A stretch of 64,000 bases of DNA from an uncultured Acetobacteraceae bacterium. Lineage in GTDB: Bacteria; Pseudomonadota; Alphaproteobacteria; Acetobacterales; Acetobacteraceae. Positions 3,213 through 44,267 of this stretch are shown here, piece by piece (the first letter of the stretch is position 1; every line of letters starts with the position of its first letter). The notes under the pieces were generated by a model. It was given only the letters and a program-made list of their open reading frames with translations. It ran no database searches and was not told where the DNA came from. The stretch spans positions 56,800 through 120,799 of the forward strand of contig CAXTVZ010000001.1 in the NCBI GenBank assembly GCA_964247685.1. Direction: 5' to 3'. The position numbers and the translations under genes were made by a program.

Positions 3213-3241
3213 GTGCTACGCGCTTTCCGCGCGCATGGCAA
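3213..3241 (-). promoter_or_regulatory. promoter-like repeat with conserved spacer
   Basis: TTGCCA-tgcgcgcggaaagcgcg-TAGCAC (6+17+6), 8 nt upstream of leader box. Confidence 0.5.
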
Positions 3242-3416
3242 TCAAAGCCTCAGTGCGCGCCGCCCGGTCGATCGCCGCGGCGAGGTCATCCGGCGTGCTG
3301 AGCGTGCCGCTCTGCCACGCGGTCGCAATGCGTCGGCCTGGGCTCACCGGTGGGCTCGGCGCGTCAACGCTGGCGGGTACAAGCTGGGCGGTCTCGGGTG
3401 AAGCCAGGTCGAACAT
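3216..3416 (-). CDS. hypothetical protein
   Basis: 66 aa ORF; leader box 17 nt upstream. Confidence 0.5.
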   Translation of the reverse strand: MFDLASPETAQLVPASVDAPSPPVSPGRRIATAWQSGTLSTPDDLAAAIDRAARTEALIAMRAESA

Positions 3417-3433
3417 GGAAGCCTCGTCGTTGC

Positions 3434-3454
3434 GCCCGGGCTGATCCCCTCGGC
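3434..3454 (-). promoter_or_regulatory. leader stem-loop box
   Basis: GCCGAGGGGATCAGCCCGGGC, ends 17 nt before ATG 3416. Confidence 0.6.
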
Positions 3455-3502
3455 GTTTGCCAGTCGGACGCGCGGGCGAGCCCGCCCGCGCGTAAAGGAA
3501 GC

Positions 3503-3530
3503 GGCAGCCTGCCGGCCGCCGCAGGCCGCC
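3503..3530 (-). terminator. GC hairpin directly after CDS 3531..4277
   Basis: GGCGGCCTGC-N8-GCAGGCTGCC (one mismatch) followed by GCTTCCTTTA on minus strand. Confidence 0.4.
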
Positions 3531-4277
3531 TCACCCATGCGCAAGTCCGTATTTCTCGGCGCAGATCGGGCCGTAGCCCGCTTCGATGGAAGCCTTGTCG
3601 GTCAGCTCGCGCGCGCAAAAGCAGCAGGCCCCGAAGCGCTGGCCGTACGCCTTGGCCGCCGCCTCGGGGTCGGCCGCCAGGCAGGTGAGCGCCCGGCCGA
3701 CGCGCGCGGTAGTCGCCGGGTCGGCGTTGCGCGCCGGCTCGAACCGGCCGTCTGCCAGGATGCGGCCGAACCAGCTGCGATCCTCGAAAGCACGGTCGGC
3801 GCTGCAGACGTTGACGGTGCCTGGCGCGCGGGCGCCCTCGCCGGCGACGGTCAGGCGGAACTGCTGCTCGTCGGCTGCGCACAGCACCTTCGGGTTCTTC
3901 AACGTAGTGCTGGCGCGGCGCATCATGTCGACGATGCTGCCCAGGTTGGCGGTGGTGGTGGGCGCGGGCGTCGCCGGCCCGGCTGACGCGGTGGAAGCCA
4001 TCGCGCGCCGCACGGCGGCCTCCTGGTTGGGCGACAGCGTGCCGTAGCTGTCGAAGCCGACGCACACGTCGCGCAGGAAGTTGCTGCGGCCGGTGTTGGC
4101 GCGCAGCCAGTCGATCAGCGCGCCGCGGGTCTCGTCCTGCGCAAACCATATCGTCGACCGCGCGCTGCCGCCGGTCCGCGCCACTGGCCGAGGCGCCGGC
4201 GCGGGCTGGCCCGCCGGCTGCTGGCGAAACGCCGCAAAGTCGGAGGAGGAGAGGGCCATGTAGCGACCTTTTGCCAT
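3531..4277 (-). CDS. protein with DUF6011-like C-terminal zinc ribbon
   Basis: C-terminal CCFCARELTDKASIEAGYGPICAEKYG; ATG 4277 with AAGGAA upstream; internal start of ORF 3531..4544. Confidence 0.6.
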   Translation of the reverse strand: MAKGRYMALSSSDFAAFRQQPAGQPAPAPRPVARTGGSARSTIWFAQDETRGALIDWLRANTGRSNFLRDVCVGFDSYGTLSPNQEAAVRRAMASTASAGPATPAPTTTANLGSIVDMMRRASTTLKNPKVLCAADEQQFRLTVAGEGARAPGTVNVCSADRAFEDRSWFGRILADGRFEPARNADPATTARVGRALTCLAADPEAAAKAYGQRFGACCFCARELTDKASIEAGYGPICAEKYGLAHG

Positions 4278-4296
4278 GATGCTGTTCCTTCGCAGC

Positions 4297-4318
4297 GCCC
4301 CGGGACGACCCCTTGGGC
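4297..4318 (-). promoter_or_regulatory. leader stem-loop box
   Basis: GCCCAAGGGGTCGTCCCGGGGC, ends 19 nt before ATG 4277. Confidence 0.6.
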
Positions 4319-4327
4319 GTAACAGAA

Positions 4328-4356
4328 TGTTTGCGCGCTTTCCGCGCACAGAGCAA
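4328..4356 (-). promoter_or_regulatory. promoter-like repeat with conserved spacer
   Basis: TTGCTC-tgtgcgcggaaagcgcg-CAAACA, 9 nt upstream of leader box. Confidence 0.5.
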
Positions 4357-4378
4357 GCAGTATCTATGCGCCGAGCAG

Positions 4379-4576
4379 TCAGGCGTCGTCGTCTTTGGCG
4401 GCGAACTCGCCACACCAGTCCGACGCGCTGACGCGCGGCCAGCCGCGCTTGCTCTCGTTCTCCATCTGCACCGGCGGAAAGCGCCGGCAAATGAAGTCGA
4501 GGCTGCCCTTGGCGCCCGGCGTGCGATACTTGCAGTCCAGGCACGCGGGCTCGGCGTCGGCAAACCTCTTGCCCAC
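4379..4576 (-). CDS. small Cys-rich protein
   Basis: 65 aa, CLDC...C...WCGEF; GTG 4576 two nt after upstream stop. Confidence 0.5.
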   Translation of the reverse strand: MGKRFADAEPACLDCKYRTPGAKGSLDFICRRFPPVQMENESKRGWPRVSASDWCGEFAAKDDDA

Positions 4577-4578
4577 GA

Positions 4579-5241
4579 TCAGCCAGCTACGGCTTCCTCG
4601 GTCTCGAAGACCGCAAGCCCGGCAATCACGTCGGCCGCGGCGTCCGCGTCGAACAGCACGAACTCGCAGCCCCTCGTGCGCGCGACCGCAAACACGCCCG
4701 CCAGGTCCGCCGGCACGTCGCCGTAGAAGGACGGCCCGCTGTGCGTCGGCACGGACACGAACCAGCCGCGCGGCATGCCGCCGATGTTGACCACCCGATA
4801 GTCGGGTTCGAGCTCCAGTTGGTTGGCGAGCCAGGCTTGGGTTGCCAGCGACAGGTGATCGGTGGCGACGTCGAGCAGGGTGCGCACGGGGTAGGGCGCG
4901 GCCGCTTCGTCGCGCGTGTCCTGCGCTTGGACACAGATCTCGCCCATGTCGCGCGTGCCGGTGGCGACCTCCGGGTGCTTGGTCAGGATGCAGGCGTAGG
5001 CGCGCTGCTCTTCGGTGCGCTGCCACTCCCGCACGGCTTGCAGCCGCTCGTCTGACCCGGCCGGCAAATCGTCCAGATGCGCCGGGAGACGCCGCGTGCC
5101 GATGCGCCCCATGCGCACGCCGTCGATTGTCTGCTGCGTGCTGTGGTTGCCGCCGAGCATGTCGCCGGTGTGCGGCTCCCACGCCGTGTAGACGACGCAG
5201 CTGGTGCCGATGATCCTGGTGGCGGTGACGATGTTCCACAT
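4579..5241 (-). CDS. hypothetical protein
   Basis: 220 aa ORF, first gene of minus block; promoter-like repeat and leader box upstream. Confidence 0.6.
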   Translation of the reverse strand: MWNIVTATRIIGTSCVVYTAWEPHTGDMLGGNHSTQQTIDGVRMGRIGTRRLPAHLDDLPAGSDERLQAVREWQRTEEQRAYACILTKHPEVATGTRDMGEICVQAQDTRDEAAAPYPVRTLLDVATDHLSLATQAWLANQLELEPDYRVVNIGGMPRGWFVSVPTHSGPSFYGDVPADLAGVFAVARTRGCEFVLFDADAAADVIAGLAVFETEEAVAG

Positions 5242-5260
5242 GGGCGCGGGGCTCCGTTGC

Positions 5261-5281
5261 GCCCGGCATAATCGCCTCGGC
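5261..5281 (-). promoter_or_regulatory. leader stem-loop box (degenerate)
   Basis: GCCGAGGCGATTATGCCGGGC, ends 19 nt before ATG 5241. Confidence 0.45.
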
Positions 5282-5289
5282 GTCTCATT

Positions 5290-5318
5290 CGCTTACGCGC
5301 TTCCCGCGTAGAGAGCAA
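5290..5318 (-). promoter_or_regulatory. promoter-like repeat, fused to palindrome site
   Basis: TTGCTC-tctacgcgggaagcgcg-TAAGCG; -35 is the right arm of CAACAtaaTGTTG. Confidence 0.5.
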
Positions 5319-5328
5319 CATAATGTTG
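5316..5328. promoter_or_regulatory. CAACA-N3-TGTTG palindrome (operator-like)
   Basis: CAACAtaaTGTTG between divergent starts 5241(-) and 5472(+). Confidence 0.55.
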
Positions 5329-5471
5329 CGCCTCTCCCAACCGCTGGCGCAAAAAACGAACGCAGCTCGTTACTTGGTCCGAGCAATCTTGCAATTTCCG
5401 CCCAGTGTTCCACAAGGCAATAGCGCAGCACTTTCAGCACTGAGGCGTCGGCGCGCCGCCTGGAGCACCGT

Positions 5472-6383
5472 ATGTATGCGGCAAGAAGCCCCGTCACCAA
5501 GAGGTCGGGCGTGACGACTGACGCGCCCAAAGACAACAAAAAGTTGGGCCAGTCGCGCCCCGCAAAGCACGGCCTGCGCGCCGATGGTAGGCCGCGCAAG
5601 CGGCCGCGGCCTTACGCTGGCGAGAGCACGCTACCGCCCGATCCGTCCGCTGCGGATGAAGTGCAAGCCGCGTCGCGCGCCCGCTCGTCCGCCGGCGTGT
5701 TCATGGAGACCGAGGTCCGGGCGAGCAGGGTGGTCAAGGCGGAGACGGAGCACGGCCGCTCGGTTCGTCTGCTGGCGGACGACCGCGCCGACCACCGCGT
5801 GCCGTCGATCCGTCGCGAGGTCATCACCGGTGGGCTCGACGCCGACGGAGAGGCAATCACCCTGCGCGCGCCCAGCGTCGAGGACGGAAGCTGGCGAGAC
5901 CCTGACGACACTGTGCCGAACGCCAGCCGCGTGCCGCGCCGGGTGCGCGCCAACCGGCGCGCCAACAACCTGCGCTGGATGCAGAAGCGCGGAGTTGCCC
6001 TGAGCGACGACCACGTGACCGCCGGTGAGCTCTACGAGCAGGACTACGAGACGGCGCACATCGGCAGGTTTCCCGGCGCACCACCGCCGGAAATCCGGGG
6101 CACGCCGGGGCCTGGCGACTATTCGCGGTGCATCGACAAAAGCCGGATGTTCAACGAGGCGGAGGCTGCCGTTGGCCACTTCGGCGCCGACCTGCTGCGC
6201 CACGTCGTGCTCGGCCGCGAGGGATCCGCGCCAGGCGACATCAGCTCGTGGGCGGCCACCAAGCAGGTTGGCGGCAGACAGCTCGACCGCAAGGCGGCCG
6301 TCGGCGTGCTCATCGCCACGCTGGAAATCCTGGTTGGGCACTACGGACGCCGCATCCGCGACAAGCAGAAATCCGAGGCGTAG
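5472..6383 (+). CDS. hypothetical protein, possibly DNA-binding (DUF6456-like, unverified)
   Basis: 303 aa, GGAG 6 nt upstream of ATG, basic N-terminus; RWMQKRGVALSDDHVTAGELYEQDYE and C-terminal LIATLEILVGHYG recall DUF6456-type proteins. Confidence 0.5.
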   Translation: MYAARSPVTKRSGVTTDAPKDNKKLGQSRPAKHGLRADGRPRKRPRPYAGESTLPPDPSAADEVQAASRARSSAGVFMETEVRASRVVKAETEHGRSVRLLADDRADHRVPSIRREVITGGLDADGEAITLRAPSVEDGSWRDPDDTVPNASRVPRRVRANRRANNLRWMQKRGVALSDDHVTAGELYEQDYETAHIGRFPGAPPPEIRGTPGPGDYSRCIDKSRMFNEAEAAVGHFGADLLRHVVLGREGSAPGDISSWAATKQVGGRQLDRKAAVGVLIATLEILVGHYGRRIRDKQKSEA

Positions 6384-6499
6384 CCGGTCTCGCTAAGCGG
6401 CTTCGGTCGTTGCGTGAACTGATTTCTGGCAGGCAGCAACGCGCGCGCTCGCGTATACGCGCGCGAGAGGGGTGCGACTTGACCCGGCTCGCCGTCCAA

Positions 6500-6597
6500 C
6501 GCTTTGTTACGCTGTCGCCCGGCCCGGTGTGCCGGCGGCATGGTCGACGTTTCCTCCCTAAACTTGGCGCGGACCGGATCGGCCCGCGCTTTTTTTT
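6500..6597 (+). ncRNA. candidate sRNA or 3'UTR-derived RNA with anti-SD motif
   Basis: GC hairpin region, single-stranded UUUCCUCCCUAAA (6550-6562), then intrinsic terminator; no convincing ORF. Confidence 0.2.
6567..6597 (+). terminator. rho-independent terminator
   Basis: GCGCGG-accggatcggc-CCGCGC followed by T8 (6590-6597). Confidence 0.7.
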
Positions 6598-6850
6598 GCT
6601 CAGTGCATGCCGCCGCCAGACACGGGCGCGCCCACCGGCACGCCAGCGACACGCGCGGTGTTCCACTTGTGGGCGTAGTGGCCGTCGACCTTGATCGCGC
6701 CGTCCTGAACGCTCGGTCGACCGCCGCGACAACGCCTACGGATCGTATCGCTTCTTTCACCGCCCGGTGGCCGCCCAGCAGGCGTAGGTGCGCCTGACCG
6801 GCAGGCGGCGAGAGACAGCGAGGTATTTTGCGGTTTTCGCAAAGAACTGC

Positions 6851-6879
6851 TTGCAACGTGCGCGGAAAGCGCGTAAATC
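6851..6879 (+). promoter_or_regulatory. promoter-like repeat with conserved spacer
   Basis: TTGCAA-cgtgcgcggaaagcgcg-TAAATC, 8 nt upstream of leader box. Confidence 0.5.
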
Positions 6880-6887
6880 AATCTTAC

Positions 6888-6907
6888 GCCAGGGCGACGT
6901 GCCCGGC
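6888..6907 (+). promoter_or_regulatory. leader stem-loop box
   Basis: GCCAGGGCGACGTGCCCGGC, ends 21 nt before ATG 6929. Confidence 0.55.
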
Positions 6908-6928
6908 GGCAGCGCGGAGGCTCCGGCC

Positions 6929-7156
6929 ATGCAGATCACCTACGGCGACCGCTTCGTAGACGAGTGCAGCCCCGCTGCGGTGCGCGGCCGGTTCTGCTTC
7001 ACGGCGGACGGCACCAAGGCCGCCGGCGGCTTCGACGTCAACATGAAACTCAGCGCCGACCGCGCGGCTGACGCAACCAAAGCCGCAAAGATCGTCGCCA
7101 AGCGCGCCGGCACCGACCAAGTCGTGCTGCACCGCCTGACATCCCCCACCCGCTGA
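6929..7156 (+). CDS. hypothetical protein
   Basis: 75 aa, GGAGG upstream; internal start of ORF 6788..7156. Confidence 0.55.
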   Translation: MQITYGDRFVDECSPAAVRGRFCFTADGTKAAGGFDVNMKLSADRAADATKAAKIVAKRAGTDQVVLHRLTSPTR

Positions 7157-7163
7157 TCAACCC

Positions 7164-7183
7164 GGCAAGGGCACAGCCCGGCC
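7164..7183 (+). promoter_or_regulatory. leader stem-loop box (intercistronic)
   Basis: GGCAAGGGCACAGCCCGGCC, ends 18 nt before ATG 7202; no promoter motif upstream. Confidence 0.55.
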
Positions 7184-7201
7184 GCACCACTGGAGTCGTC
7201 G

Positions 7202-7546
7202 ATGACCTACCAAAGCCCAGTCCAGCTCACGCACGTGATCGCCGCGTTCCAGATGCACCCGACCTTGCACCGGATGGTTGACGCGACCTGCTACTGTTTC
7301 GACAGCGGCCAGCGCTTGTCGGTCTACCTGGCGGACGATGCGGTGTTCGCGGAAGCGGGAACCGGCCTGCTTCCAACCGATGCGGAGGCTGCGTTCATGC
7401 GCGAGGTCGCGGGGCGCACGACATTTCAGCAGCTGCCCGCTCAGCTGCGGCGAGGTAAGCCTGTCGGCCCGCGCGGCCTGGGGGCAATGACGTTTTCTGT
7501 TGCCGCCTCGCCGAAACTGCTTGCTCTGTGCGCGGAAAGCGCGTAG
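7202..7546 (+). CDS. hypothetical protein
   Basis: 114 aa ORF; 3' end reads through the next promoter-like repeat. Confidence 0.55.
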   Translation: MTYQSPVQLTHVIAAFQMHPTLHRMVDATCYCFDSGQRLSVYLADDAVFAEAGTGLLPTDAEAAFMREVAGRTTFQQLPAQLRRGKPVGPRGLGAMTFSVAASPKLLALCAESA

Positions 7547-7549
7547 AAC
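7521..7549 (+). promoter_or_regulatory. promoter-like repeat with conserved spacer
   Basis: TTGCTC-tgtgcgcggaaagcgcg-TAGAAC. Confidence 0.5.
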
Positions 7550-7557
7550 TGAATCAC

Positions 7558-7577
7558 GCCAAGGGAACCGCCCGGGC
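7558..7577 (+). promoter_or_regulatory. leader stem-loop box
   Basis: GCCAAGGGAACCGCCCGGGC, ends 18 nt before ATG 7596. Confidence 0.6.
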
Positions 7578-7595
7578 GTGCCGACGGAGAGACCC

Positions 7596-7937
7596 ATGAT
7601 CGTTCACACCGCCACTCTGACTGCCGAGCAGACCGCCAAGCTGACCCGCCTGGCCAACTACGGCACCCGCTACGAGGCAGCGATCGTGCGCGCCGACGGC
7701 ACCAAGGTGCTGCTCGGCTATCTTCGTCGTCACAGCTTTCTCGGCTTGGCCGCAGGAGTTGACGGCCGCGCCCTTCGTGTAGTCGACGCCCTCGGTGACG
7801 CCGGCGTTCTTGTCCGCCACCTTCGCAAAACCATGCGTGTGGCTTTCGTCACCGAGGCCGGGGCAGTGCTGGGCCACGCGGAATTCACCGGCCGCACCGA
7901 GCGCGACGCGATCCGCGAGGGCGAGTTGGTCAACTGA
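7596..7937 (+). CDS. hypothetical protein
   Basis: 113 aa; GGAGAG upstream; internal start of ORF 7500..7937. Confidence 0.6.
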   Translation: MIVHTATLTAEQTAKLTRLANYGTRYEAAIVRADGTKVLLGYLRRHSFLGLAAGVDGRALRVVDALGDAGVLVRHLRKTMRVAFVTEAGAVLGHAEFTGRTERDAIREGELVN

Positions 7938-7956
7938 TCAAAACCAGGAGGAAGAT

Positions 7957-8223
7957 GTGCAGCAACTCAGTAAAGACGCCCAGAGTGTCGCCGTTTGTTT
8001 CTTCGGCTTCATGCCGAAGGTAGAACTCGTTTTTCACCGACCGCGTATTATTCATCCGCGGATGCGGTCAGCGCTGGACGAACTGACCGAAGCTGGTTTG
8101 TTGACGACCGAAGACGATAAGCGCGGGCCAAAGGCGTGGAAGGCAACGCCTGAGCTAACCGCGCTGGCCAAGACGCTTCCGCGTCCTAGGGAGGAAGACA
8201 GCGTTCCCCTGACAACAAAGTAA
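7957..8223 (+). CDS. hypothetical protein
   Basis: GTG 7957 five nt after AGGAGG; lower-GC patch. Confidence 0.5.
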   Translation: MQQLSKDAQSVAVCFFGFMPKVELVFHRPRIIHPRMRSALDELTEAGLLTTEDDKRGPKAWKATPELTALAKTLPRPREEDSVPLTTK

Positions 8224-8275
8224 CCAGCGAGCACAAGCTTGCCTGCATTTGGCAAGCGGCATGGAGCTTCCAACG

Positions 8276-8494
8276 ATGAGCACCACGACAGCAAGTTACG
8301 ACAAAAGGTTTCTACCCTACGCGGAGGCTGCTCTTGGCGCTTACGCTCGGGCGGTCGGTTGGCACGCCGACGCCGGTCCGGACCAGGCCATCGTGGCGTG
8401 CGTCGCCTCGCTTCTTCATTACGCCGCAGCGAATGGCTGCGAGCCGTCGGACATGATCGAGCGAGCGAAGGAAATGTATGACACCGAGGCCTGA
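8276..8494 (+). CDS. hypothetical protein
   Basis: Start uncertain (ATG 8249, 8261 or 8276); GGAG 9 nt before 8276; begins ATGAGCACC like the 32.8-33.6 kb cassette genes. Confidence 0.45.
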   Translation: MSTTTASYDKRFLPYAEAALGAYARAVGWHADAGPDQAIVACVASLLHYAAANGCEPSDMIERAKEMYDTEA

Positions 8495-8507
8495 CCAGCG
8501 TCATCGC

Positions 8508-8536
8508 TTGCTCGGTGCGCGGAAAACGCGTAAGTC
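8508..8536 (+). promoter_or_regulatory. promoter-like repeat with conserved spacer
   Basis: TTGCTC-ggtgcgcggaaaacgcg-TAAGTC. Confidence 0.5.
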
Positions 8537-8544
8537 AATAACCG

Positions 8545-8564
8545 GCCGAGGGGACGTCCCAGGC
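8545..8564 (+). promoter_or_regulatory. leader stem-loop box
   Basis: GCCGAGGGGACGTCCCAGGC, ends 20 nt before ATG 8585. Confidence 0.6.
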
Positions 8565-8584
8565 CGCACCCAAGGACGAAGCTG

Positions 8585-8755
8585 ATGGCACGAGCCGCCC
8601 CAACCCTGCACGCCGAGTTGCGCAACAGACGACGCACGCCGCAGCCGTTCAACGTGTCGTATCGCCGCGTCGGCGGCCTGCGCCTGCTCAAGCTGGGACG
8701 ACTGACGATCAGCTTTTCCGTCTCGCGTTCGTTCAAGCCCATCAAGGGCACCTAG
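8585..8755 (+). CDS. small basic protein (below ORF-track cutoff)
   Basis: 56 aa MARAAPTLHAELRNRRRTPQPFNVSYRRVGGLRLLKLGRLTISFSV...; high GC3; positioned exactly behind promoter repeat and leader box. Confidence 0.45.
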   Translation: MARAAPTLHAELRNRRRTPQPFNVSYRRVGGLRLLKLGRLTISFSVSRSFKPIKGT

Positions 8756-8770
8756 AGCCAACCGCCACCG

Positions 8771-8791
8771 GCCAAGGGCGCTGTGCCCAGG
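8771..8791 (+). promoter_or_regulatory. leader stem-loop box (intercistronic)
   Basis: GCCAAGGGCGCTGTGCCCAGG, ends 20 nt before ATG 8812. Confidence 0.55.
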
Positions 8792-8811
8792 TCAAGCACC
8801 AGGATGCCGTC

Positions 8812-9195
8812 ATGAACCGCCACCGCTATATCCGCGCCACGCATGAAACCGAGGACAGCGAGACCGGCGCGGTCACCAGCTGCACCGAGACCCGGATCCA
8901 CTACACCTACCTCGCTGGCTGCGCCGCCCAGGTCTATGGGCCGGCCGAGCGCTGCCACCCGGCCGAGGCGGCCGAGGTCGAACTCGACTACGTCGAACGC
9001 GAGCAAGAGGGCAGGTGGGTGCGCCTGGACCTCAGCCGCGCCGAGGCGGCCTCGCCCGAAAGCATGCACGACCACGCCCTGCAGGTGTGGGCGGAGTACT
9101 ACCTCGCCGAGCACACCGACGAGGTGACCGAGCGTGAGGCTGACCTAGCCGCCGAAGCGCGGGAATACGCTGCGGAGTGCCGCGCCGACCGATAG
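8812..9195 (+). CDS. hypothetical acidic protein
   Basis: 127 aa ORF. Confidence 0.55.
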   Translation: MNRHRYIRATHETEDSETGAVTSCTETRIHYTYLAGCAAQVYGPAERCHPAEAAEVELDYVEREQEGRWVRLDLSRAEAASPESMHDHALQVWAEYYLAEHTDEVTEREADLAAEAREYAAECRADR

Positions 9196-9211
9196 CCGAC
9201 CAGCCAGCACG

Positions 9212-9231
9212 GCCAAGGGATCGTCCCGGGC
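9212..9231 (+). promoter_or_regulatory. leader stem-loop box (intercistronic)
   Basis: GCCAAGGGATCGTCCCGGGC, ends 19 nt before ATG 9251. Confidence 0.6.
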
Positions 9232-9250
9232 CGATCGACAGGAGCCTGCA

Positions 9251-9457
9251 ATGCAAAAACGACGCTACATCCCCGCTTGGCGCACGCCCCAAGCCCACAA
9301 GCCCACAGCCCGACACGTGCTACTCCGGGCCGCGGCGTTCGCCTGGCGTGCCTATCGCAGCAGCCGCGACGCTCAGGAGTGGGCGGCAATGCTAGGCCTA
9401 ATCGGCCTGCTGCCGCTGACCACCTTCGCCTGCCTCTACCTGTTCGGCTCGCCATGA
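9251..9457 (+). CDS. small protein with C-terminal hydrophobic helix
   Basis: 68 aa, AGGAG 6 nt upstream; MLGLIGLLPLTTFACLYLF. Confidence 0.5.
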   Translation: MQKRRYIPAWRTPQAHKPTARHVLLRAAAFAWRAYRSSRDAQEWAAMLGLIGLLPLTTFACLYLFGSP

Positions 9458-9675
9458 CCGCGCCGGTGAGCTCTGCCACCTACCGTGCGGCGGTGAACGC
9501 GTTCGCGGTGGCCCGCCTGCACCTCACGGTCGCCGAGGCCATGCACGCCGACGGATTGTTGCCAGCAGCCGACATGGAGCGAGCCCGCGGCGCCTGGGAC
9601 GACGCCGGCTTCACCTACCGCCACGCCGAGCTGCTCGAGGTGCTTCGGCTTGATGCCAGCTCGGGGGCCGCCTAG
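9454..9675 (+). CDS. hypothetical protein
   Basis: ATGA overlap with previous CDS. Confidence 0.5.
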   Translation: MTAPVSSATYRAAVNAFAVARLHLTVAEAMHADGLLPAADMERARGAWDDAGFTYRHAELLEVLRLDASSGAA

Positions 9676-9924
9676 GTGCGGTGGGGACCGTCGACGCCCA
9701 CACCCGCCGAGCGCCTGCGCGCCAGGTGCACGTATTGGGAGGCCCGCGGCCTGGCTTACTGGCAGGGCCGTCTTGCCGCGGCTGAGCGGTCGGTTGCCAA
9801 GGCAACGACGATGCAGGCGGTCCGCCGCACGATCGAGCGCCGTCAGGAGTGCGAGCACGCAGTTCACACCCTGCGCCAAGCGGCGGCCGATCCCGCGCCG
9901 AATTTGCCGGCCACTGCCCAATAA
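9676..9924 (+). CDS. hypothetical protein
   Basis: GTG immediately after previous stop; 82 aa. Confidence 0.5.
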   Translation: MRWGPSTPTPAERLRARCTYWEARGLAYWQGRLAAAERSVAKATTMQAVRRTIERRQECEHAVHTLRQAAADPAPNLPATAQ

Positions 9925-9927
9925 GCC

Positions 9928-9956
9928 TTGCTCCGTGCGTGGAAAGCGCGTAAACA
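9928..9956 (+). promoter_or_regulatory. promoter-like repeat with conserved spacer
   Basis: TTGCTC-cgtgcgtggaaagcgcg-TAAACA. Confidence 0.5.
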
Positions 9957-9965: not shown

Positions 9966-9986
9966 GCCAAGGGGTGTGTCCCGGGC
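9966..9986 (+). promoter_or_regulatory. leader stem-loop box
   Basis: GCCAAGGGGTGTGTCCCGGGC, ends 18 nt before ATG 10005. Confidence 0.6.
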
Positions 9987-10004: not shown

Positions 10005-10328
10005 ATGTTCGCACTCGACGCCCGCATCGCCCGTGAGCCCGTTGGTTGCCCCGGCCACAACGCCGAGTTCTTTCCAGAGCGCATCGCGCTGGACGAGATC
10101 ACCCGCCTAGCGTGCCTGGTCGGCACCGCCCGCCGCGCTTTCGTGCTGGCGGTGGACAAGCTGCGCGGCGCAAACCGCCGGCGGACGTCCAAGGCTGCCA
10201 ATCACCCGACCGAGCGCCGCCTGCGGCAGTCCATCGCCATGCGCGCCCTCAACCGCGCCCGCACCACGCTGATCCGTGCGGAGAAAGCACTGGCCGACGC
10301 TCAGGCGCGGCTTGCCGCCGTTCACTAG
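10005..10328 (+). CDS. hypothetical protein
   Basis: 107 aa, AAGGAG upstream. Confidence 0.55.
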   Translation: MFALDARIAREPVGCPGHNAEFFPERIALDEITRLACLVGTARRAFVLAVDKLRGANRRRTSKAANHPTERRLRQSIAMRALNRARTTLIRAEKALADAQARLAAVH

Positions 10329-10381: not shown

Positions 10382-10394
10382 CAACAAAATGTTG
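10382..10394. promoter_or_regulatory. CAACA-N3-TGTTG palindrome (operator-like)
   Basis: CAACAaaaTGTTG; right arm starts TTGCCC-N18-TAGTCT. Confidence 0.55.
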
Positions 10395-10430
10395 CCCCAA
10401 GAAGGCACGCCGGCGTAGTCTCCCGGCCGG

Positions 10431-10450
10431 GCCGAGGGACGCACCCGGCC
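10431..10450 (+). promoter_or_regulatory. leader stem-loop box
   Basis: GCCGAGGGACGCACCCGGCC, ends 18 nt before TTG 10469. Confidence 0.55.
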
Positions 10451-13425: not shown

Positions 13426-14225
13426 CCATCCAGCACATCGTCATGTTTTCAGGAGGAATCGGATCGTGGGCCTGCGCTGATCGCGTAAAGGCGAGATTTG
13501 GGGCGCGAGACATGACACTGCTTTTTACCGACACGTTGTCCGAACACCAGGACCTTTATCGGTTTCTGAGTGATGCGGCGGCAAACATCGGTGCTCCGCT
13601 TATCCAGATCAGTGAGGGTCGCACACCATTTCAGGTGTTTCGAGACGAACGCTTCCTTGGCAACAGCAGCGTTGATCCATGCAGCAAGATACTGAAAAGG
13701 CGGCTGGCTGACCGCTGGCTCAAGAGCAACTGCGACCCGACAAACACCGTCATCTATGTCGGCATAGACTGGTCCGAATCTCATCGGTTCGATGACGGCA
13801 AGGGTCACGGCCTGAGAGTGCGCCGCGCAGAAGACGGGTGGCGGTATGAAGCGCCGCTAACCGAGCCGCCTTATTTGACTAAGCGTGAAATGTTAGCTCA
13901 TGCCAGCGGGCTCGGGTTGCAGCCAAGCAGCTCCTATGCTGACGGTTTTGCCCACGATAACTGTCGCGGCCTCTGCTGTAAGGCCGGGCAAGGGCAGTTC
14001 GCTCATCTGCTGCGCGTGCGCCCCGACGTCTATGCGGAAGGCGAGCGCGAGGAGAACTCCTTACGAGATTTGTTGGGTGACGTCTCGATGATGACCGACC
14101 GCACAGGCGACGGAAAAAAGAAGCCGCTCACCATGACAGCCTTGCGACAGCGAATAGAGGCCGGAGGGCAGATCGACATGTTCGACATCGGCGGCTGCGG
14201 CTGCTTCGTTGATGATGATGCGTAG
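13422..14225 (+). CDS. PAPS-reductase-like PP-loop ATP pyrophosphatase family protein
   Basis: N-terminal VMFSGGIGSWA PP-loop; ATGA overlap; GC clearly lower than neighbours. Confidence 0.65.
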   Translation: MTIQHIVMFSGGIGSWACADRVKARFGARDMTLLFTDTLSEHQDLYRFLSDAAANIGAPLIQISEGRTPFQVFRDERFLGNSSVDPCSKILKRRLADRWLKSNCDPTNTVIYVGIDWSESHRFDDGKGHGLRVRRAEDGWRYEAPLTEPPYLTKREMLAHASGLGLQPSSSYADGFAHDNCRGLCCKAGQGQFAHLLRVRPDVYAEGEREENSLRDLLGDVSMMTDRTGDGKKKPLTMTALRQRIEAGGQIDMFDIGGCGCFVDDDA

Positions 14226-30937: not shown

Positions 30938-30972
30938 GAGTGCCTCCAGTCTCGGAGTTAGCGAGGCGGCGC

Positions 30973-31305: not shown

Positions 31306-31338
31306 TTGGTGTCTCCGTCTCGATGACTCCTTTATGAC

Positions 31339-31393: not shown

Positions 31394-31402
31394 AAGGTGG
31401 CC

Positions 31403-31573: not shown

Positions 31574-31641
31574 GCAGAGTCACCGAAACCTGTCCCGTAA
31601 CCTCTGACTCGGCTGTAAACGGGCGAGAGGGAAAACACAAC

Positions 31642-32256
31642 GTGCAAGCGCCGCAGGAACCTCGCCAGCACCTAGTCGGCTACGCGCGGGTCTCAATGAG
31701 CGATCAGAACACCCAGCGCCAGATAGACGAGCTGAAGGCTTTCGGGGTGGCCGAGAGCGACATTTTCCAGGACACGAAATCCGGCAAGACGATGAACCGG
31801 CCGGGCTGGAAGAACCTCTGGCGGGACGTGCGCGAGGGCGACCTGCTCGTGGTCCATGCGCTCGACCGCCTCGGCCGCGACATGCTGGAGGTGATGGCGA
31901 TCCTGGACGAGCTGGATCGCCGCAAGGTCCAGGTGAAGATACTCACCTTCGGGCTCGACACCCGCACGCCGATGGGCCGGTTCGTCCTGAGCATCTTGCT
32001 TTCTGTGGCCGAACTGGAGCGCAACATGATCGTGGAACGCACCCGGCACGGCCTGGCGAAGGCGCGGGAGCGCGGGCGGATCGGCGGGCGGCCCGAACGG
32101 CTAAGCGAGGCGAAGGTGCTGGAGGCCATCCGGCGCGAGAAGGCCGGCGAGTTTCTAAGCGACATCGCCAAGGAGTTCGGGGTGGGCCGGAACACTCTCT
32201 ACAAGCGGCGGAAAGACACGATGGACGCGCAGCGAGCCAAGGAGAAAGCAAAGTGA
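31642..32256 (+). CDS. serine recombinase, invertase/resolvase type with C-terminal HTH
   Basis: LVGYARVSMSDQNTQRQ, VVHALDRLGRD, ERNMIVERTRHGLAKARERGRIGGRP, SDIAKEFGVGRNTLYKRR; GTG start after GAGAGGGA. Confidence 0.9.
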   Translation: MQAPQEPRQHLVGYARVSMSDQNTQRQIDELKAFGVAESDIFQDTKSGKTMNRPGWKNLWRDVREGDLLVVHALDRLGRDMLEVMAILDELDRRKVQVKILTFGLDTRTPMGRFVLSILLSVAELERNMIVERTRHGLAKARERGRIGGRPERLSEAKVLEAIRREKAGEFLSDIAKEFGVGRNTLYKRRKDTMDAQRAKEKAK

Positions 32257-32531
32257 GCACCGAACCCACTGCCCAGCAAACCCAAGTTGACCCGCCTAGA
32301 GTCGTTGCCGACTGGCGTCCGTTTCCTGAAACGGCTCCAAGAGATCGCCGCATTTTAGTTCGAGGTCGTTGGCGTCCGCATGATTTCCGGGCGGGTGGAG
32401 AGACCTGCATCGAAATCGCAAGCTGGTCTACCGTCATGTCGGACGGTAGTGGCTACCATTGGATGCTTGGCCTAGGCAGCTTGGACCGCTGGAACGTTGA
32501 TTTTACTGAGTGGACGGACTTGCCATCATGA
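32253..32531 (+). CDS. DUF551-like protein, leader-family member a
   Basis: GTGA overlap with recombinase stop; VSTEPTAQQTQ leader; WRPFPETAP...FTEWTDLP. Confidence 0.55.
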   Translation: MSTEPTAQQTQVDPPRVVADWRPFPETAPRDRRILVRGRWRPHDFRAGGETCIEIASWSTVMSDGSGYHWMLGLGSLDRWNVDFTEWTDLPS

Positions 32532-32804
32532 CCGGACCTACTGCCCAACAAACCCCCATTAGCTGCCGATCGCCTGCGGCTAGACTACATTAACAGTCTT
32601 CCGCAACCATTTACTCTCCGCCAATACGGCGACAAGCAAACATGGCCGCTCGAATCAATCGACGTTCAAACCGGAATACTTCGGTTCGACGTGTGCGGCA
32701 AACTTCAGGCCGGGCACATAGGCGACGTTGCCGAGTTCATCGACGCAGAGGGTGTAAGCCACGAACCCGATACCTTCTATTCTGACTACGAGGCTGCACC
32801 ATGA
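32528..32804 (+). pseudogene. leader-family member b, interrupted by a +1 frame change
   Basis: MTGPTAQQTP then stop after 21 codons; the +1 frame continues LAADRLRLDYINSLPQPF...SDYEAAP to TGA 32802-32804; junction at AACCCCCA. Confidence 0.4.
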
Positions 32805-33025
32805 GCACCGAACCGCAAACCCAGATCTTACACCGCCTGCGCGATTGGCCGGATGGCCTTACAGTTGAGGCGGATCAGAAGCGTGCCAAGCTTGCTCAGC
32901 AAGCGGCAGACGAGATTAAGCGACTGCGCGAAGCTTTGACCGAGATAGCGACAGGCAAAGACCGCGAGGGACTTATTGCTGACTTCCCCCGTAAGCGTGC
33001 TCAGGATGCACTAGATGGCCGATGA
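32801..33025 (+). CDS. leader-family member c
   Basis: MSTEPQTQILHRLRDW; ATGA overlap. Confidence 0.5.
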   Translation: MSTEPQTQILHRLRDWPDGLTVEADQKRAKLAQQAADEIKRLREALTEIATGKDREGLIADFPRKRAQDALDGR

Positions 33026-33257
33026 TCTGCCGTCACCGCAAACCCAGATCAGCGACCGTTTGGTGACTTGGACAATAGGAATTGGCCGGGACGGTTCTGT
33101 CTTTGACGACACACAGACGCACGGCAACAGTTTTGCTGATGTATATCGAGGCTTTTTTGCGATTAAAGATGAGCTTGAACGACAGATAAGCGACCGTCGC
33201 AATTGCCCTTATAACCCTATCAATCCGCAACCACCATCGTTCGAGAGGATGACATGA
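33015..33257 (+). CDS. leader-family member d
   Basis: MADDLPSPQTQISDRLVTW. Confidence 0.5.
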   Translation: MADDLPSPQTQISDRLVTWTIGIGRDGSVFDDTQTHGNSFADVYRGFFAIKDELERQISDRRNCPYNPINPQPPSFERMT

Positions 33258-33472
33258 GCACCGAGGGGGAAAACCACGACTGGCGTGCGGCTATAGCTAC
33301 GCCAGAAGCCGCAGAGGCGCGCCGAATAAACGACGGCGCGCTCCGCGGTAGAAGCCCAACCGCAGAAGAGGCTTCGCACGCGGTTCGATGGATGGGCGAA
33401 GTCGGAATACCCGCAGTGCAAACAGCGATGGCCGAAGCCGAAAGCAGAGGGTGCAGCATCTATGAGCTTTGA
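33254..33472 (+). CDS. leader-family member e
   Basis: MSTEGENHDW; ATGA overlap. Confidence 0.5.
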   Translation: MSTEGENHDWRAAIATPEAAEARRINDGALRGRSPTAEEASHAVRWMGEVGIPAVQTAMAEAESRGCSIYEL

Positions 33473-33617
33473 GAAAAACCAGACCGAGCGCGCCAGCACG
33501 TATCTGGAGATCACCTTTTTCTCTCGCACATGGCGCTGGACCGGCTGGGCAGCAACGTGGCTAGTTTGCGCGGTGCCGCTCGGGGTTGCGTTGGTTGTGG
33601 TGAAGTTCGCATCATGA
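33462..33617 (+). CDS. small membrane peptide (below ORF-track cutoff)
   Basis: 51 aa, WTGWAATWLVCAVPLGVALVVV; ATGA overlap with next gene. Confidence 0.45.
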   Translation: MSFEKNQTERASTYLEITFFSRTWRWTGWAATWLVCAVPLGVALVVVKFAS

Positions 33618-33838
33618 GCACCGAACCGCAAACCCAGACCGACGCTATCAACGCCGCCGTCTTGGCTGAGAGAGAACGTATTGCTCAGGCTCTCGAGGAA
33701 GAAGCTAGGACTACACCGTGCCACGAAGACGCTGTTGTCGTCTTAGATTGCGCGCGGTTGGTAAGAGCCAATTTCTCGTATGACGAAGCCGAACGGCTGC
33801 AAAATGCGGCAGAAAAGGAAGCGGCCGATGCCATCTGA
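33614..33838 (+). CDS. leader-family member g
   Basis: MSTEPQTQTDAIN; first 25 nt identical to 32801-32825. Confidence 0.5.
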   Translation: MSTEPQTQTDAINAAVLAERERIAQALEEEARTTPCHEDAVVVLDCARLVRANFSYDEAERLQNAAEKEAADAI

Positions 33839-34076
33839 TCCAATACCGCAACCCCACCTCGAAACGGAGCGGATCACAAACGGCACGCTTAACGCGATTC
33901 TCCTAACCGAGTCTCACGGTCCACCTGAGCCGCCAATGCCGTGGAAGATTTTCGTGCAGGCTTTTGATGAACCTGAGGGCGTGCGGTTCCAATTAAGTGG
34001 ATCGCGCTGGATGACTGCACGTGAGCTGCGAAAGTTTTGTGTTGCCGGAATGGTTTTGTCAGAGCACTACAAATGA
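33828..34076 (+). CDS. leader-family member h
   Basis: MPSDPIPQPHLE. Confidence 0.5.
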   Translation: MPSDPIPQPHLETERITNGTLNAILLTESHGPPEPPMPWKIFVQAFDEPEGVRFQLSGSRWMTARELRKFCVAGMVLSEHYK

Positions 34077-41951: not shown

Positions 41952-42418
41952 TGACTCCGCGGCTTGCGCTGCCGGGCTGCCTGTTGACCGCCTGCGTCGT
42001 CGGCTGCGCCGTCCTGCTCGGCCCGCCGGAAGCGCCGGCCGCCGCCGCGGTGACGCCCAATGCGCAGCTGACGCCGGGGGCGGTGTCCAGCGACCCTGTG
42101 GAGGCTGTGTGCCGGCCAGGCTACGCGGCCGCGAGGCGGGCTGAACTGCCCCGGGTCGCGCGGGCCGAAGTCTACGCGCGCTACGGCATGGCAGAGCACA
42201 GCCGAGGCTTTGTCATCGACCACCGCGTGCCGCTCAGCCTGGGCGGCCTCAACCTAGTGGAGAACCTATGGCCGGAGCCAAAGGCCGGCCGGGAGAGTGC
42301 GCACGCCAAGGACGAGCTCGAGCGCGCGCTGCACAGCAGAGTATGCCGTTACCATACGATGACGCTGCGGGCGGCGCAGGACGTCTTCCTCGGCGACTGG
42401 CGCGCCGGCGCGCCGTAG
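41948..42418 (+). CDS. HNH-motif nuclease-like lipoprotein
   Basis: Lipobox CLLTAC; VIDHRVPLSLGGLNLVENLWPE. Confidence 0.6.
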   Translation: MMTPRLALPGCLLTACVVGCAVLLGPPEAPAAAAVTPNAQLTPGAVSSDPVEAVCRPGYAAARRAELPRVARAEVYARYGMAEHSRGFVIDHRVPLSLGGLNLVENLWPEPKAGRESAHAKDELERALHSRVCRYHTMTLRAAQDVFLGDWRAGAP

Positions 42419-42464
42419 GCCGCCATCGCCGGCCTCGGCGGCGATCTTCGCTTGCGATAGCGCC

Positions 42465-42477
42465 CAACATATTGTTG
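42465..42477. promoter_or_regulatory. CAACA-N3-TGTTG palindrome, inverted flank orientation
   Basis: CAACAtatTGTTGtgtc, only 30 nt before ATG 42508. Confidence 0.45.
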
Positions 42478-42507
42478 TGTCGGACGAGCAACCCAGCCTG
42501 GCGAACC

Positions 42508-43515
42508 ATGACGTCCACTAAGGTCTACTTTGCAACGAACCGCGTGGCCTCGCTTGGCGATTACGGGTTCAGCGACGAAATCATAGCCGCCGACGCGCCG
42601 CTGACCTGGGCGGTGGCGGACGTGTCCGGCATCGACATCGCCAATCCCGATTCAGGCGGGGTGGACCGCTACGCGGTTGAATCGGCCGATAAGCTGGCGG
42701 GCATGATCCGCGACGACGTCGTGCTCGGAAAGCGCAACTTGCTGATTTTCGTCCACGGCTTCGACAACAGCTTCGACGATGCAATCGAGCGCGCAGCCTA
42801 CGTGCGCGAGTTCTACGCCCAGTCCGGGGTGCAAGGTGCAGACTGCGTGGTCGTGACCTTCACCTGGCCGTCGTCGGGTCTCGTGCTGGAGAAGCTACCC
42901 GCCCCACCGCAAGCGGCTTACCTGCGCGACCAGGCGATTGCGGCACAGAGCGGTGAGCATCTGGCCACATTCCTCAAGGCGATGGCTGCGCTGCTGCCCA
43001 GCATGCCAGCCGACAGACGGGCAACCCTGCTGGTGCACAGCATGGGCAACGTGGCCTTTGCCCAGGCCGTCTACACGGTCGGCGGCACCTGGAACGCGCC
43101 CCCGTTCGACGACGTCGTCCTGGCGGCGCCCGACGTGGCGAACACGGTGCTGGACCTGCCGGTCGACCCGATGTTTCGGCTGCCTGTGCTGGCCAAGTGC
43201 GTGTCGGTCTACTTCAGCAGGCGCGACCTGATCCTCGACGTCAGCTCCGGCATCAACGGCAACGCACGGCTCGGTCAACATGGGCCGAGCCATGCCGACC
43301 GGGCAAGTTTTCCGGCCGACAAGTTTCGCATGGTCGACTGCACGGAAGCGCGAGACTTTCCCAGCCTCACCCCGATCGATGCGACGCACCAGTATTACCG
43401 GCGCTCGCGCCTAGTGCGCGACGACCTTGCGCGCGTGATTGCGGGCTTGCCGGTGCTAGGTGGCGAGACCGCGATTGGGCATCAGCCGTTGCCGGCGGCG
43501 CGGACCGTTGCGTGA
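42508..43515 (+). CDS. alpha/beta hydrolase, DUF900-like
   Basis: LLIFVHGFDNSFDDA and nucleophile elbow LLVHSMGNVA. Confidence 0.65.
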   Translation: MTSTKVYFATNRVASLGDYGFSDEIIAADAPLTWAVADVSGIDIANPDSGGVDRYAVESADKLAGMIRDDVVLGKRNLLIFVHGFDNSFDDAIERAAYVREFYAQSGVQGADCVVVTFTWPSSGLVLEKLPAPPQAAYLRDQAIAAQSGEHLATFLKAMAALLPSMPADRRATLLVHSMGNVAFAQAVYTVGGTWNAPPFDDVVLAAPDVANTVLDLPVDPMFRLPVLAKCVSVYFSRRDLILDVSSGINGNARLGQHGPSHADRASFPADKFRMVDCTEARDFPSLTPIDATHQYYRRSRLVRDDLARVIAGLPVLGGETAIGHQPLPAARTVA

Positions 43516-43525
43516 TCAAGGTGCG

Positions 43526-43885
43526 GTGCCGCTCGGCGTTCGCCGCGCTGCCGAGCGGTTCGCGCGGCGCTGGCCGCAGTTTGGCACGCCGGAGGGCGCC
43601 TACTACGCCTGCGAGGACGCGAGCCGCTTGTTCGCGATGCACACGCGCGGCGCGGTCGTCGTGCACGCGCTCGGCAGCCGCCGGCCGTTTCCGCGCGCCT
43701 ACGCTGAGTGGCGGGAATACGGCACGCTGGACCGCAACCTCTATCACGTCGTCTGCCGGATCGGCCGCTGGTATGTCGACGTGACGCGCAGGCAGATGGA
43801 GCCGAATGCTGCATACCCATTCATCCAGCACGAGCGGCAATTTCGGCGCGAGTGGCGTCAGATCAGCACAGAGGCACTTGTATGA
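43526..43885 (+). CDS. hypothetical protein
   Basis: GTG 43526 after AAGG; internal start of ORF 43460..43885. Confidence 0.5.
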   Translation: MPLGVRRAAERFARRWPQFGTPEGAYYACEDASRLFAMHTRGAVVVHALGSRRPFPRAYAEWREYGTLDRNLYHVVCRIGRWYVDVTRRQMEPNAAYPFIQHERQFRREWRQISTEALV

Positions 43886-44232
43886 GCGAGAACGACAACT
43901 CGGCAGACGCCGACAATAAGGTCTTCGACCTGATGGCCGAGATCTATCCGGAGCCGGCAAAGTACCGCCTAGGCAAGTTTACGGTGTCGCTTCACCTGAT
44001 CGAAAAACGCTTGGACCTCGTCAAAGCCATGGTCGAGGGCTGCGTGGTCGTCAGCGCTAAAGTCTGCTGGCACCGCAACGCCATCGAATACGTGGCCCTG
44101 CACGACGATTTCGACTTGTGCACAAAAGTCGAGACAACACCTTATTACTCCGCCGCTATGGCGTGCCTAGAAGGCCGAACGTTCAAGCGCGAGTGGAGGC
44201 GCGAGGCCGGCTCCGTCTGGCTTCCGCTGTAA
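43882..44232 (+). CDS. hypothetical protein
   Basis: ATGA overlap. Confidence 0.5.
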   Translation: MSENDNSADADNKVFDLMAEIYPEPAKYRLGKFTVSLHLIEKRLDLVKAMVEGCVVVSAKVCWHRNAIEYVALHDDFDLCTKVETTPYYSAAMACLEGRTFKREWRREAGSVWLPL

Positions 44233-44238
44233 CGAAGC

Positions 44239-44267
44239 TTGCAAGCGCGGTGACTTTGCGCGAACGT
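44239..44267 (+). promoter_or_regulatory. promoter-like repeat, variant spacer
   Basis: TTGCAA-gcgcggtgactttgcgc-GAACGT, 6 nt upstream of leader box. Confidence 0.4.

Follow-up and report, generated by a model that had tools for sequence, protein, structure and literature searches.

In the 64-kb stretch of contig CAXTVZ010000001.1 analysed here (hereafter the window, about half of an uncultured phage genome of about 126 kb), seven copies of a palindromic module lie between 3 and 10 kb, and these are very probably promoters that carry a regulator site for duplex DNA binding. In the mechanism we propose, the modules would be host-sigma70-type promoters of the phage early region, with the frame cTTGCnn, a 17-nt spacer and TAnnnn, transcription would start just upstream of a conserved 5' leader hairpin, and the 17-bp dyad in the spacer would be a duplex-DNA site binding a dimeric regulator. 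The likeliest regulator would be the phage's own GafA/GafZ-family (DUF6456) protein, encoded at 5472-6383, which, by analogy with GafZ and its binding site, would bind the palindrome while RNA polymerase is at the promoter or just leaving it, and would then activate these units and/or make their transcription termination-resistant. From sequence comparison we infer the promoter activity and the transcription start position and, at a further step, the binder and the sign of the regulation.

The modules were searched for with the pattern TTGCNNNNNNCGCGGAAAGCGCGTA, allowing up to 3 mismatches, and the expectation was taken from dinucleotide shuffles. The pattern matched exactly seven sites in the window, each with at most 1 mismatch, against 0.06 expected, and the shuffles never reached seven; the matches fall at 3217-3241(-), 4332-4356(-), 5294-5318(-), 6851-6875(+), 7521-7545(+), 8508-8532(+) and 9928-9952(+), as originally predicted. 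The remaining 54 kb of the window contained no further good copy, and the 13-nt core alone, at 2 mismatches, occurs elsewhere in the window at chance level. All seven copies are intergenic and co-oriented with the next gene, three pointing leftward and four rightward, so as to diverge from a centre at 5320-6850. The modules, with the genes they are predicted to drive, are the following.

3213 to 3241, minus strand: module 1, TTGCCA-tg-CGCGCGGAAAGCGCGTA-gcac, dyad at 3217-3233; predicted to drive the gene at 2909-3163(-).
4328 to 4356, minus strand: module 2, TTGCTC-tg-TGCGCGGAAAGCGCGCA-aaca, dyad at 4332-4348; predicted to drive the DUF6011 gene at 3531-4277(-).
5290 to 5318, minus strand: module 3, TTGCTC-tc-TACGCGGGAAGCGCGTA-agcg, dyad at 5294-5310; predicted to drive the DUF5983-domain gene at 4579-5241(-).
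6851 to 6879, plus strand: module 4, TTGCAA-cg-TGCGCGGAAAGCGCGTA-aatc, dyad at 6859-6875; predicted to drive the gene at 6929-7156.
7521 to 7549, plus strand: module 5, TTGCTC-tg-TGCGCGGAAAGCGCGTA-gaac, dyad at 7529-7545; predicted to drive the gene at 7596-7937.
8508 to 8536, plus strand: module 6, TTGCTC-gg-TGCGCGGAAAACGCGTA-agtc, dyad at 8516-8532; predicted to drive the small open reading frame (ORF) at 8585-8755 and the following genes.
9928 to 9956, plus strand: module 7, TTGCTC-cg-TGCGTGGAAAGCGCGTA-aaca, dyad at 9936-9952; predicted to drive the gene at 10005-10328.

The general form of the module is TTGCnn-N2-[T-R-CGCGG-AAA-S-CGCG-Y-A]-nnnn, and its geometry is as had been described: a 6-nt box, a 17-nt spacer, a second 6-nt box and then 8-11 nt to the leader hairpin, which is followed by a Shine-Dalgarno sequence (SD) and the start codon. 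The conserved unit is better stated as the 17-bp dyad T-R-CGCGG-AAA-S-CGCG-Y-A, whose last two bases are the TA of the second hexamer. This hexamer had been written TAAnnn; its TA is conserved, being the end of the dyad, but its other four bases vary, and position 6 is never T. At two modules the TAG of the second box doubles as the stop codon of an upstream ORF, namely 3216-3416(-) (stop at 3216-3218) and 7202-7546(+) (stop at 7544-7546), and genes and promoters are in general very tightly packed. Exact motif scans gave no hit in IMG/VR and, in 185,579 species genomes, seven single hits at chance level with no multi-copy locus. Phage promoter sets with an embedded dyad site are a known arrangement; with respect to these two collections, the present set is novel in sequence.

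Only two genomes of this phage clade were found among billions of database proteins. The second, and the sole related genome found, is L009, an ENA metagenome contig of 118 kb that is syntenic with positions 1-12 kb of the window in reverse orientation, most proteins being 45-77% identical. When 12-20 kb of the window was compared by megablast with phage and plasmid collections, nothing matched, and a search for related loci with a 220-aa early protein as query returned nothing. In L009 the same pattern finds the module seven times, against 0.02 expected, and two more copies in a divergent promoter pair bring the total to nine. Both extra copies have the centre inverted (TTT) and the -35 box one base further away, with the half-sites kept. 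The L009 core is TACGCGG-AAA-CCGCGTA and forms a perfect 7+3+7 inverted repeat in three copies; the window has G at position 11 (A in one copy) where L009 has C, hence the GCGC-GGAAA-GCGC string from which the original prediction started.

When the seven window and nine L009 copies are aligned, CGCGG and CGCG show little or no variation, the final A is the same in all, and TTGC is present in 15 of the 16. The invariant columns are CG.GG...CGC..A, together with one T of TTGC, and this bears out in two phages the claim that the spacer is the best-conserved part of the module; loss of the spacer in related phages had been named as a result that would speak against the prediction, and in L009 it is kept. 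Free variation is seen in the 2-3 nt that separate the first box from the dyad, in the final four nt of the second box and in the 8-11 nt leading up to the leader hairpin. The half-sites read TRCGCG(G/C) around a 3-bp A/T centre, with 3-7 of the 7 symmetric positions matched per copy.

For six of the seven window modules, the orthologous L009 gene is likewise preceded by a module, despite diverged intergenic flanks. Module 1 corresponds to L009 12016(+), upstream of the orthologous gene, module 2 to 9904(+), module 3 to 7398(+), module 5 to 4731(-) and module 7 to 2396(-); for module 4, the orthologous L009 gene 5099-5326 has a module with inverted centre (TTT) and 18-nt spacer. Pairs also share peculiarities of their own, such as TTGCCA with a dyad starting in C (3217 and L009 12016) and the unusual downstream sequence CAAACATTCTGT (4332 and L009 9904). 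Because the modules are orthologous in position and share such pair-specific features, we conclude from these alignments that they are vertically inherited and kept by selection and have not spread as a mobile repeat. The alternative, that the 29-mer is part of a mobile or selfish repeat (similar to miniature inverted-repeat transposable elements) or of a replication or partition repeat and is not regulatory, could draw on the length of the conserved unit, which exceeds 29 nt and with the leader hairpin reaches about 65 nt. However, every copy is intergenic and shares the orientation of the gene that follows it, the orthologous counterparts are in a phage with about 60% protein identity, and the flanks outside the unit are unrelated and without terminal repeats. 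We consider this alternative extremely improbable, and the caveat raised with the original prediction, that the 29-mer might belong to a longer mobile repeat, is not borne out. One module-bearing gene differs between the two phages: L009 has an intact 199-aa gene at 5516-6115 that possesses its own module, the window retains a 3'-terminal remnant of this gene at about 6601-6720(-), and the greater part of it, along with the promoter, appears to have been deleted in the window.

The original prediction had also proposed that the spacer works as RNA, as a nut-like antitermination hairpin (boxA and boxB) read from upstream transcripts and bound by an Arg-rich, N-like protein. A stem can indeed be drawn: as RNA, the 29-mers form hairpins of 4-7 bp, GC-rich and with a GAAAG/GGAAA loop, and their minimum free energy is -7 to -14 kcal/mol; this is, however, weakly better than shuffles (z from -0.25 to -2.5). 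Upstream ORFs without terminators precede modules, so that read-through RNA would include them, and the short GC stem, the purine-rich pentaloop and a CGCTCTT-like string near some copies resemble the N-nut systems of lambda and P22. Unlike those systems, the modules do not conserve boxA: the GCTCT noted before the core occurs in three of the seven window copies and is absent from the other four and from all nine in L009. For the 7-pair helix in the 16-copy alignment, 83.9% of cells are paired but no pair has changed on both sides, column shuffles equal or exceed the covariation score in 470 of 500 cases, and C:A, A:C and G:G mismatches are tolerated at outer and inner pairs. The loop is inverted to UUU in two L009 copies. 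A centre inverted to TTT with kept half-sites is readily understood if a protein binds the duplex, and fits a boxB-type loop poorly. Moreover, the element keeps a fixed promoter spacing to TTGC and TA, which an RNA site does not need, and transcription of its own unit is predicted to start downstream of it. The proposed partner, an ORF of 56 aa at 53560-53730(+) (…RCRRRRARRAWRAAARRIVR), does exist with leader box, SD and ATG and is Arg-rich, but it showed no homology and no link to the modules was found. Given the lack of covariation, the two inverted loops and the unconserved boxA, the nut-like reading is unsupported and we regard it as very improbable; judged on these alignments, the dyad is conserved as sequence and not as pairing, in the manner of an operator.

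The frame around the dyad is that of a promoter. The arrangement cTTGCnn-N17-TAnnnn is found in all seven window copies and in seven of the nine L009 copies, the other two having N18. The sequence data support an alphaproteobacterial host because of a match to the mmgR/suhB small RNA, the DUF6456 family and the best hits of the methylase-helicase, which are to Rhodospirillales, Acetobacteraceae and Rhizobiales at about 50% identity. In alphaproteobacteria (S. meliloti) the sigma70 consensus is CTTGAC-N17-CTATAT, with a conserved TA at positions 2-3 and no conserved T at the E. coli -7 position (PMC2873474), and the spacing in the modules is identical to it. A simple E. coli-type sigma70 scan did not call the modules, because position 6 of their -10 is never T, as expected under the alphaproteobacterial consensus. 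Other promoter types were considered: sigma54 (GG-N10-GC) and extracytoplasmic-function-type readings of the motif were rejected by eye, and a MerR-type promoter, with a dyad in a 19-20 bp spacer, was rejected on the 17-bp spacer (18 bp in two L009 copies).

Downstream of the modules lie the leader hairpins, 14 of which were found in the window by a simple pattern; six follow modules, and the hairpin of the seventh module was missed by the pattern and read by eye. The hairpins of the modules are predicted to be the 5' ends of transcripts starting at the hairpin foot.

3182-3203(-), 4299-4316(-), about 5260-5281(-), 6889-6907, 7559-7576, 8546-8563 and 9967-9985: leader hairpins of the modules, the one of module 4 (the fourth listed) being CCAGGGC-N-GCCCGG; that at about 5260-5281(-) is the one read by eye.
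3435-3453(-), 8772-8791, 9213-9230, 10432-10449, 44275-44294, 53522-53541 and 61286-61302(-): further leader hairpins.

The hairpin, with consensus CC(A/G)AGGG-N-CCC(A/G)GG, is GC-rich and stands 10-20 nt upstream of the SD of many genes, directly after promoters and also inside operons without a promoter, and it is present in L009 too; its role may be to stabilise the 5' end, to direct processing, to cause pausing or to bind a protein. Of the seven leader boxes that do not follow a module, four are preceded by TTGC at a distance of 36-40 nt; the background for this 5-nt offset window is 0.026 per site (P = 1.5e-5). These four sites have unrelated spacers, and their second box begins with (T/C)A at 17-18 nt.

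10392 to 10421, plus strand: palindrome-free promoter-like site, CAACAAAATG-TTGCCC-N18-TAGTCT, 10 nt to the leader hairpin.
53485 to 53513, plus strand: palindrome-free promoter-like site, CAACAAAATG-TTGCGA-N17-TAACGC, 8 nt to the leader hairpin; ahead of the Arg-rich ORF.
61314 to 61342, minus strand: palindrome-free promoter-like site, TTGCTC-N17-CAATCG, 11 nt to the leader hairpin; ahead of the gene at 60376-61266(-).
44239 to 44267, plus strand: site earlier listed as a variant of the module, TTGCAA 36 nt upstream of the leader hairpin; ahead of the methylase-helicase gene.

The last of these does not belong with the modules, since it does not match the motif within 3 mismatches and its GCGCGG/GCGCG arms are 7 nt apart, not 3; its sequence is best assigned to another class of promoter-like site. 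Because leader hairpins preceded by unrelated spacers also have TTGC upstream at an equal distance, the comparison indicates that TTGC...TA is a general frame common to several promoter classes and that the palindrome marks one of them. Frame, dyad symmetry and conservation in L009 thus uphold the general form of the alternative that the original prediction had set beside the nut site, a sigma70-type promoter with an embedded operator. A second near-palindrome, CAACA(A/T)AATGTTGC, is found at 10383-10396 and 53476-53489, at two promoters without the GC palindrome, where its right arm supplies the TTGC -35 box, and again at 5313-5331, in the interval that separates module 3 from the GafZ-like gene. 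A related repeat, CAACGTTTTGTTG, occurs four times in L009, and there is a resemblance to an IHF-type core (CAANNNNTTG).

The same frame bears on two other explanations, namely that the site belongs to a host transcription factor exploited by the phage, or that the 25-nt unit is the promoter of a phage-specific sigma factor or RNA polymerase. Conservation across two diverged phages would be expected for a slowly evolving host factor, but the module pattern is not multi-copy in the species genomes, where the seven hits are single and at chance level. A phage sigma factor or polymerase would agree with a -10 unlike that of E. coli, with no T at position 6, and with the empty sigma70 scan; the absent last-position T is, however, what the alphaproteobacterial consensus leads one to expect (PMC2873474). 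No RNA polymerase gene was found among the large ORFs of the window, and promoters of single-subunit polymerases are not dyad-symmetric and lack the TTG/TA frame. We regard this group of explanations as improbable.

The regulator proposed here is encoded at the point from which the leftward and rightward module sets diverge.

5472 to 6383, plus strand: candidate regulator gene, 303 aa, divergent DUF6456 (GafA/GafZ-family) protein.

This is the only gene in the region without module or leader box, and it ends at its own terminator. Its product has no direct Pfam match and one close homologue, the L009 ortholog, which is 59% identical overall (69% in the C-terminal part, 40% at the N-terminus). 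A profile built from these two proteins and searched with HMMER against 1.8 billion representatives returned 141 homologues; of 60 tested, 37 match PF20057 (DUF6456), and P0115 (E 7e-22) and P0118 (E 5e-16), both found by the phage profile, pass the Pfam cutoff. The protein is a divergent member of the DUF6456 family, as far as sequence homology tells. The same kind of search gave nothing against PDB sequences or NCBIfam, and tblastn of the protein and of P0118 against isolate phages found no match. The AlphaFold 2 model made with a 60-sequence alignment has a pLDDT of 81, and with Foldseek it matches uncharacterised and DUF6456-annotated phage proteins in BFVD (E 7e-5 to 1e-2). Weak hits to sigma-factor folds, obtained with a low-confidence two-sequence model, were not significant with the good model and were discarded. 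We scanned about 50 window proteins against Pfam and/or PHROGs, about 40 of them against Pfam, and the protein at 5472-6383 was the only one that homology connects with transcription.

GafA homologues carry the annotation DUF6456 (PMC9638019, PMC9765227), and Caulobacter GafZ is a C-terminal GafA homologue with a sigma-like helix-turn-helix (HTH) (PMC11150451). The palindrome that GafZ binds, GCGCCCG-CTGGCGC, is GC-rich and nearly perfect and lies between the -35 and -10 of PgtaT; this site, the GafZ-binding element (ZBE), is required for expression of the gene transfer agent (GTA), and GafZ acts as a Q-like antiterminator (PMC11150451). Since the gene in the middle of our cluster is of the GafA/GafZ family and GafZ is an antiterminator loaded at a promoter palindrome, the idea of antitermination may survive in another, DNA-based form. 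A substrate for read-through is possible in the conserved terminator inside the leftward gene array.

3503 to 3530, minus strand: intrinsic terminator that follows the DUF6011 gene and would be met by leftward transcription.

A syntenic terminator lies at L009 10724-10754. Downstream of the window terminator are the leader box 3435-3453(-) and the ORF 3216-3416(-), with no promoter of their own; overall terminator counts are at chance level. Because the link from protein to palindrome is made by analogy and co-location, we name the DUF6456 protein as the regulator tentatively, at a little under even confidence. The complete proposal, in which a GafZ/GafA-family protein is the master regulator of a regulon of 7-9 promoters in a true phage, loading at the spacer palindrome and conferring activation or termination resistance, is again an argument from analogy and we put it forward as a possibility, more guardedly than its protein component. 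Two palindromes lie nearby: a long GC-rich one, CGCGCGCGCTCGCGTATACGCGCGCGAG, at 6436-6470, just past the stop codon of the GafZ-like gene and kept in L009, and a similar long one, ACGCGCGGGCG-GGCT-CGCCCGCGCGT, at about 3462-3488(-), after the terminator.

The main competing explanation takes the palindrome as the classical operator of a dimeric repressor, for lytic shut-off of early genes or for immunity; such a repressor would block RNA polymerase by covering the spacer and the first -10 bases. The dyad symmetry, the overlap with the -10 and the many copies confined to one gene class all agree with it. Several points weigh against the DUF6456 proposal. The -35 fits the host consensus well and the genes downstream are of immediate-early type (in L009, SSB and a DNA methylase), so that promoters first constitutive and then repressed fit at least as well as activator-dependent ones. 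A repressor gene may lie in the unseen half of the genome. The DUF6456 protein taken alone is below the Pfam threshold, its family link being transitive through the profile search, and its model gave nothing significant against PDB folds. GafZ has a single target in Caulobacter, against 7-9 sites per genome here, and the half-sites differ, TRCGCGG in a 7+3+7 arrangement with a 3-bp A-tract here and abutting GCGCCMG in the ZBE.

More distant phages point in the same direction. L015 and L013 are temperate-type alphaproteobacterial phages with a GafZ-like gene at a Q-like position, and in them a dispersed palindrome, GACAG-N5-CTGTC, recurs in several distant promoters and in a cI/cro-like intergenic region.

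L015 2112, 3000, 13464-13700, 14681, 15145 and 18416-18456: GACAG-N5-CTGTC sites.
L013 1973, 2861, 6057, 19589 and 19700: GACAG-N5-CTGTC sites.

From its distribution this palindrome is more simply explained as a dispersed repressor operator, and it is a direct analogue of what a repressor would require in the window. L010, a more distant DUF6011 phage, is without the motif and has its own TTGACAGCGTTTGTCAAGGGG repeat, and the short contigs L011, L012 and L014, which carry GafZ-like homologues, have no copy of the module palindrome. Against a repressor stand two observations: no HTH or repressor-type protein was found among the roughly 50 scanned window proteins or in the 20-kb L009 locus, and the cluster's one transcription-related gene codes for a member of a family with a single mapped target, which has precisely this promoter position. 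We treat the repressor as a serious possibility that nonetheless falls clearly short of being probable.

The rest of the window gives the setting. The large terminase gene is at 61864-63294 and a DarB-like methylase-helicase gene, coding for 1686 aa, at 44314-49374; a search with the N-terminal part of the latter returned no L009 ortholog. ParB-like, methyltransferase and invertase genes and numerous small ORFs are also present. Lessievirus (Bcep22/JC1), suggested as a relative by a 39% DarB-like match, was rejected, there being no synteny and the source genome measuring about 126 kb. The small-RNA match at 6510-6604(+) to Rfam RF00519 (suhB/mmgR) is above the gathering score (48.3 bits, E 7e-7) and carries the GUUUCCUCCCUAAACUU motif and a terminator, with a CTTGAC -35 at 6478-6483; this phage-encoded mmgR-like RNA is located between the divergent promoter sets, and its region is kept in L009. 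A low-GC island at 30000-34000 (58-59% against about 67%), with a Hin/Gin-type DNA invertase gene at 31642-32256, may be a horizontally acquired or invertible segment. A small serine recombinase of resolvase/invertase type (window 421-1203, L009 15143-15868) is 93% identical between the two phages, in contrast to 45-60% for neighbouring proteins. L009 has an array of at least nine tRNA genes at 17850-19400, and none was found in the 64-kb window.

Whatever binds them, the modules make up a complete and very clean promoter class (-35, regulator site, -10, leader) of an uncultured clade of large phages. Many phage repressors control scattered operators, as do P1 C1, mycobacteriophage L5 gp71 with its 'stoperators' and phiC31 with its conserved inverted repeats (CIR). 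With these, and with the L015 and L013 operators, the modules share one site repeated at many promoters, overlapping core elements in a consistent orientation. They differ in that the search here found no gene for a cognate repressor. The P1 and L5 sites, moreover, are asymmetric, and the L015 palindrome takes variable positions with respect to -35 and -10; the position of the module dyad is constant, its distance to the -35 varying by ±1 bp. If the palindrome is a repressor operator, the set is an ordinary though well-defined phage regulon.

The arrangement is most like GafZ-ZBE of Caulobacter crescentus and GafA of Rhodobacter capsulatus (PMC11150451, PMC9638019): in a sigma70-type alphaproteobacterial promoter, the -35 and -10 enclose a GC-rich inverted repeat, the element itself codes for a DUF6456-family protein with a sigma-region-4-like HTH, and terminators in the downstream gene array are a candidate parallel. 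In contrast to the GafZ system, ours belongs to a true phage and not to a GTA, its DUF6456 protein has diverged strongly, and neither a GafY-like partner nor an IHF site was identified. Lambda Q with its Q-binding element (QBE) and P. aeruginosa AlpA with its AlpA-binding element (ABE) are similar in that a DNA site at the -35/-10 loads a processive antiterminator onto RNA polymerase (PMC11150451). The phage protein has no sequence similarity, or significant structural similarity, to Q or AlpA; no promoter-proximal sigma-dependent pause element was identified, and Q acts at one late promoter. If the DUF6456 proposal is true, a Q-like mechanism would operate at early rather than late promoters, and the GTA activator system would have in this phage a free-living counterpart that could plausibly be its ancestor. 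Binding of the palindrome by the DUF6456 protein, if it occurs, would also make the modules a multi-site natural substrate for work on GafZ/GafA-type DNA recognition and RNA polymerase engagement, both of which are so far known from a single Caulobacter site, and would link the regulators of gene transfer agents to a phage origin. A GafZ-family protein acting at many promoters of a true phage is thus, by analogy, a possible new form of the GafZ-ZBE system.

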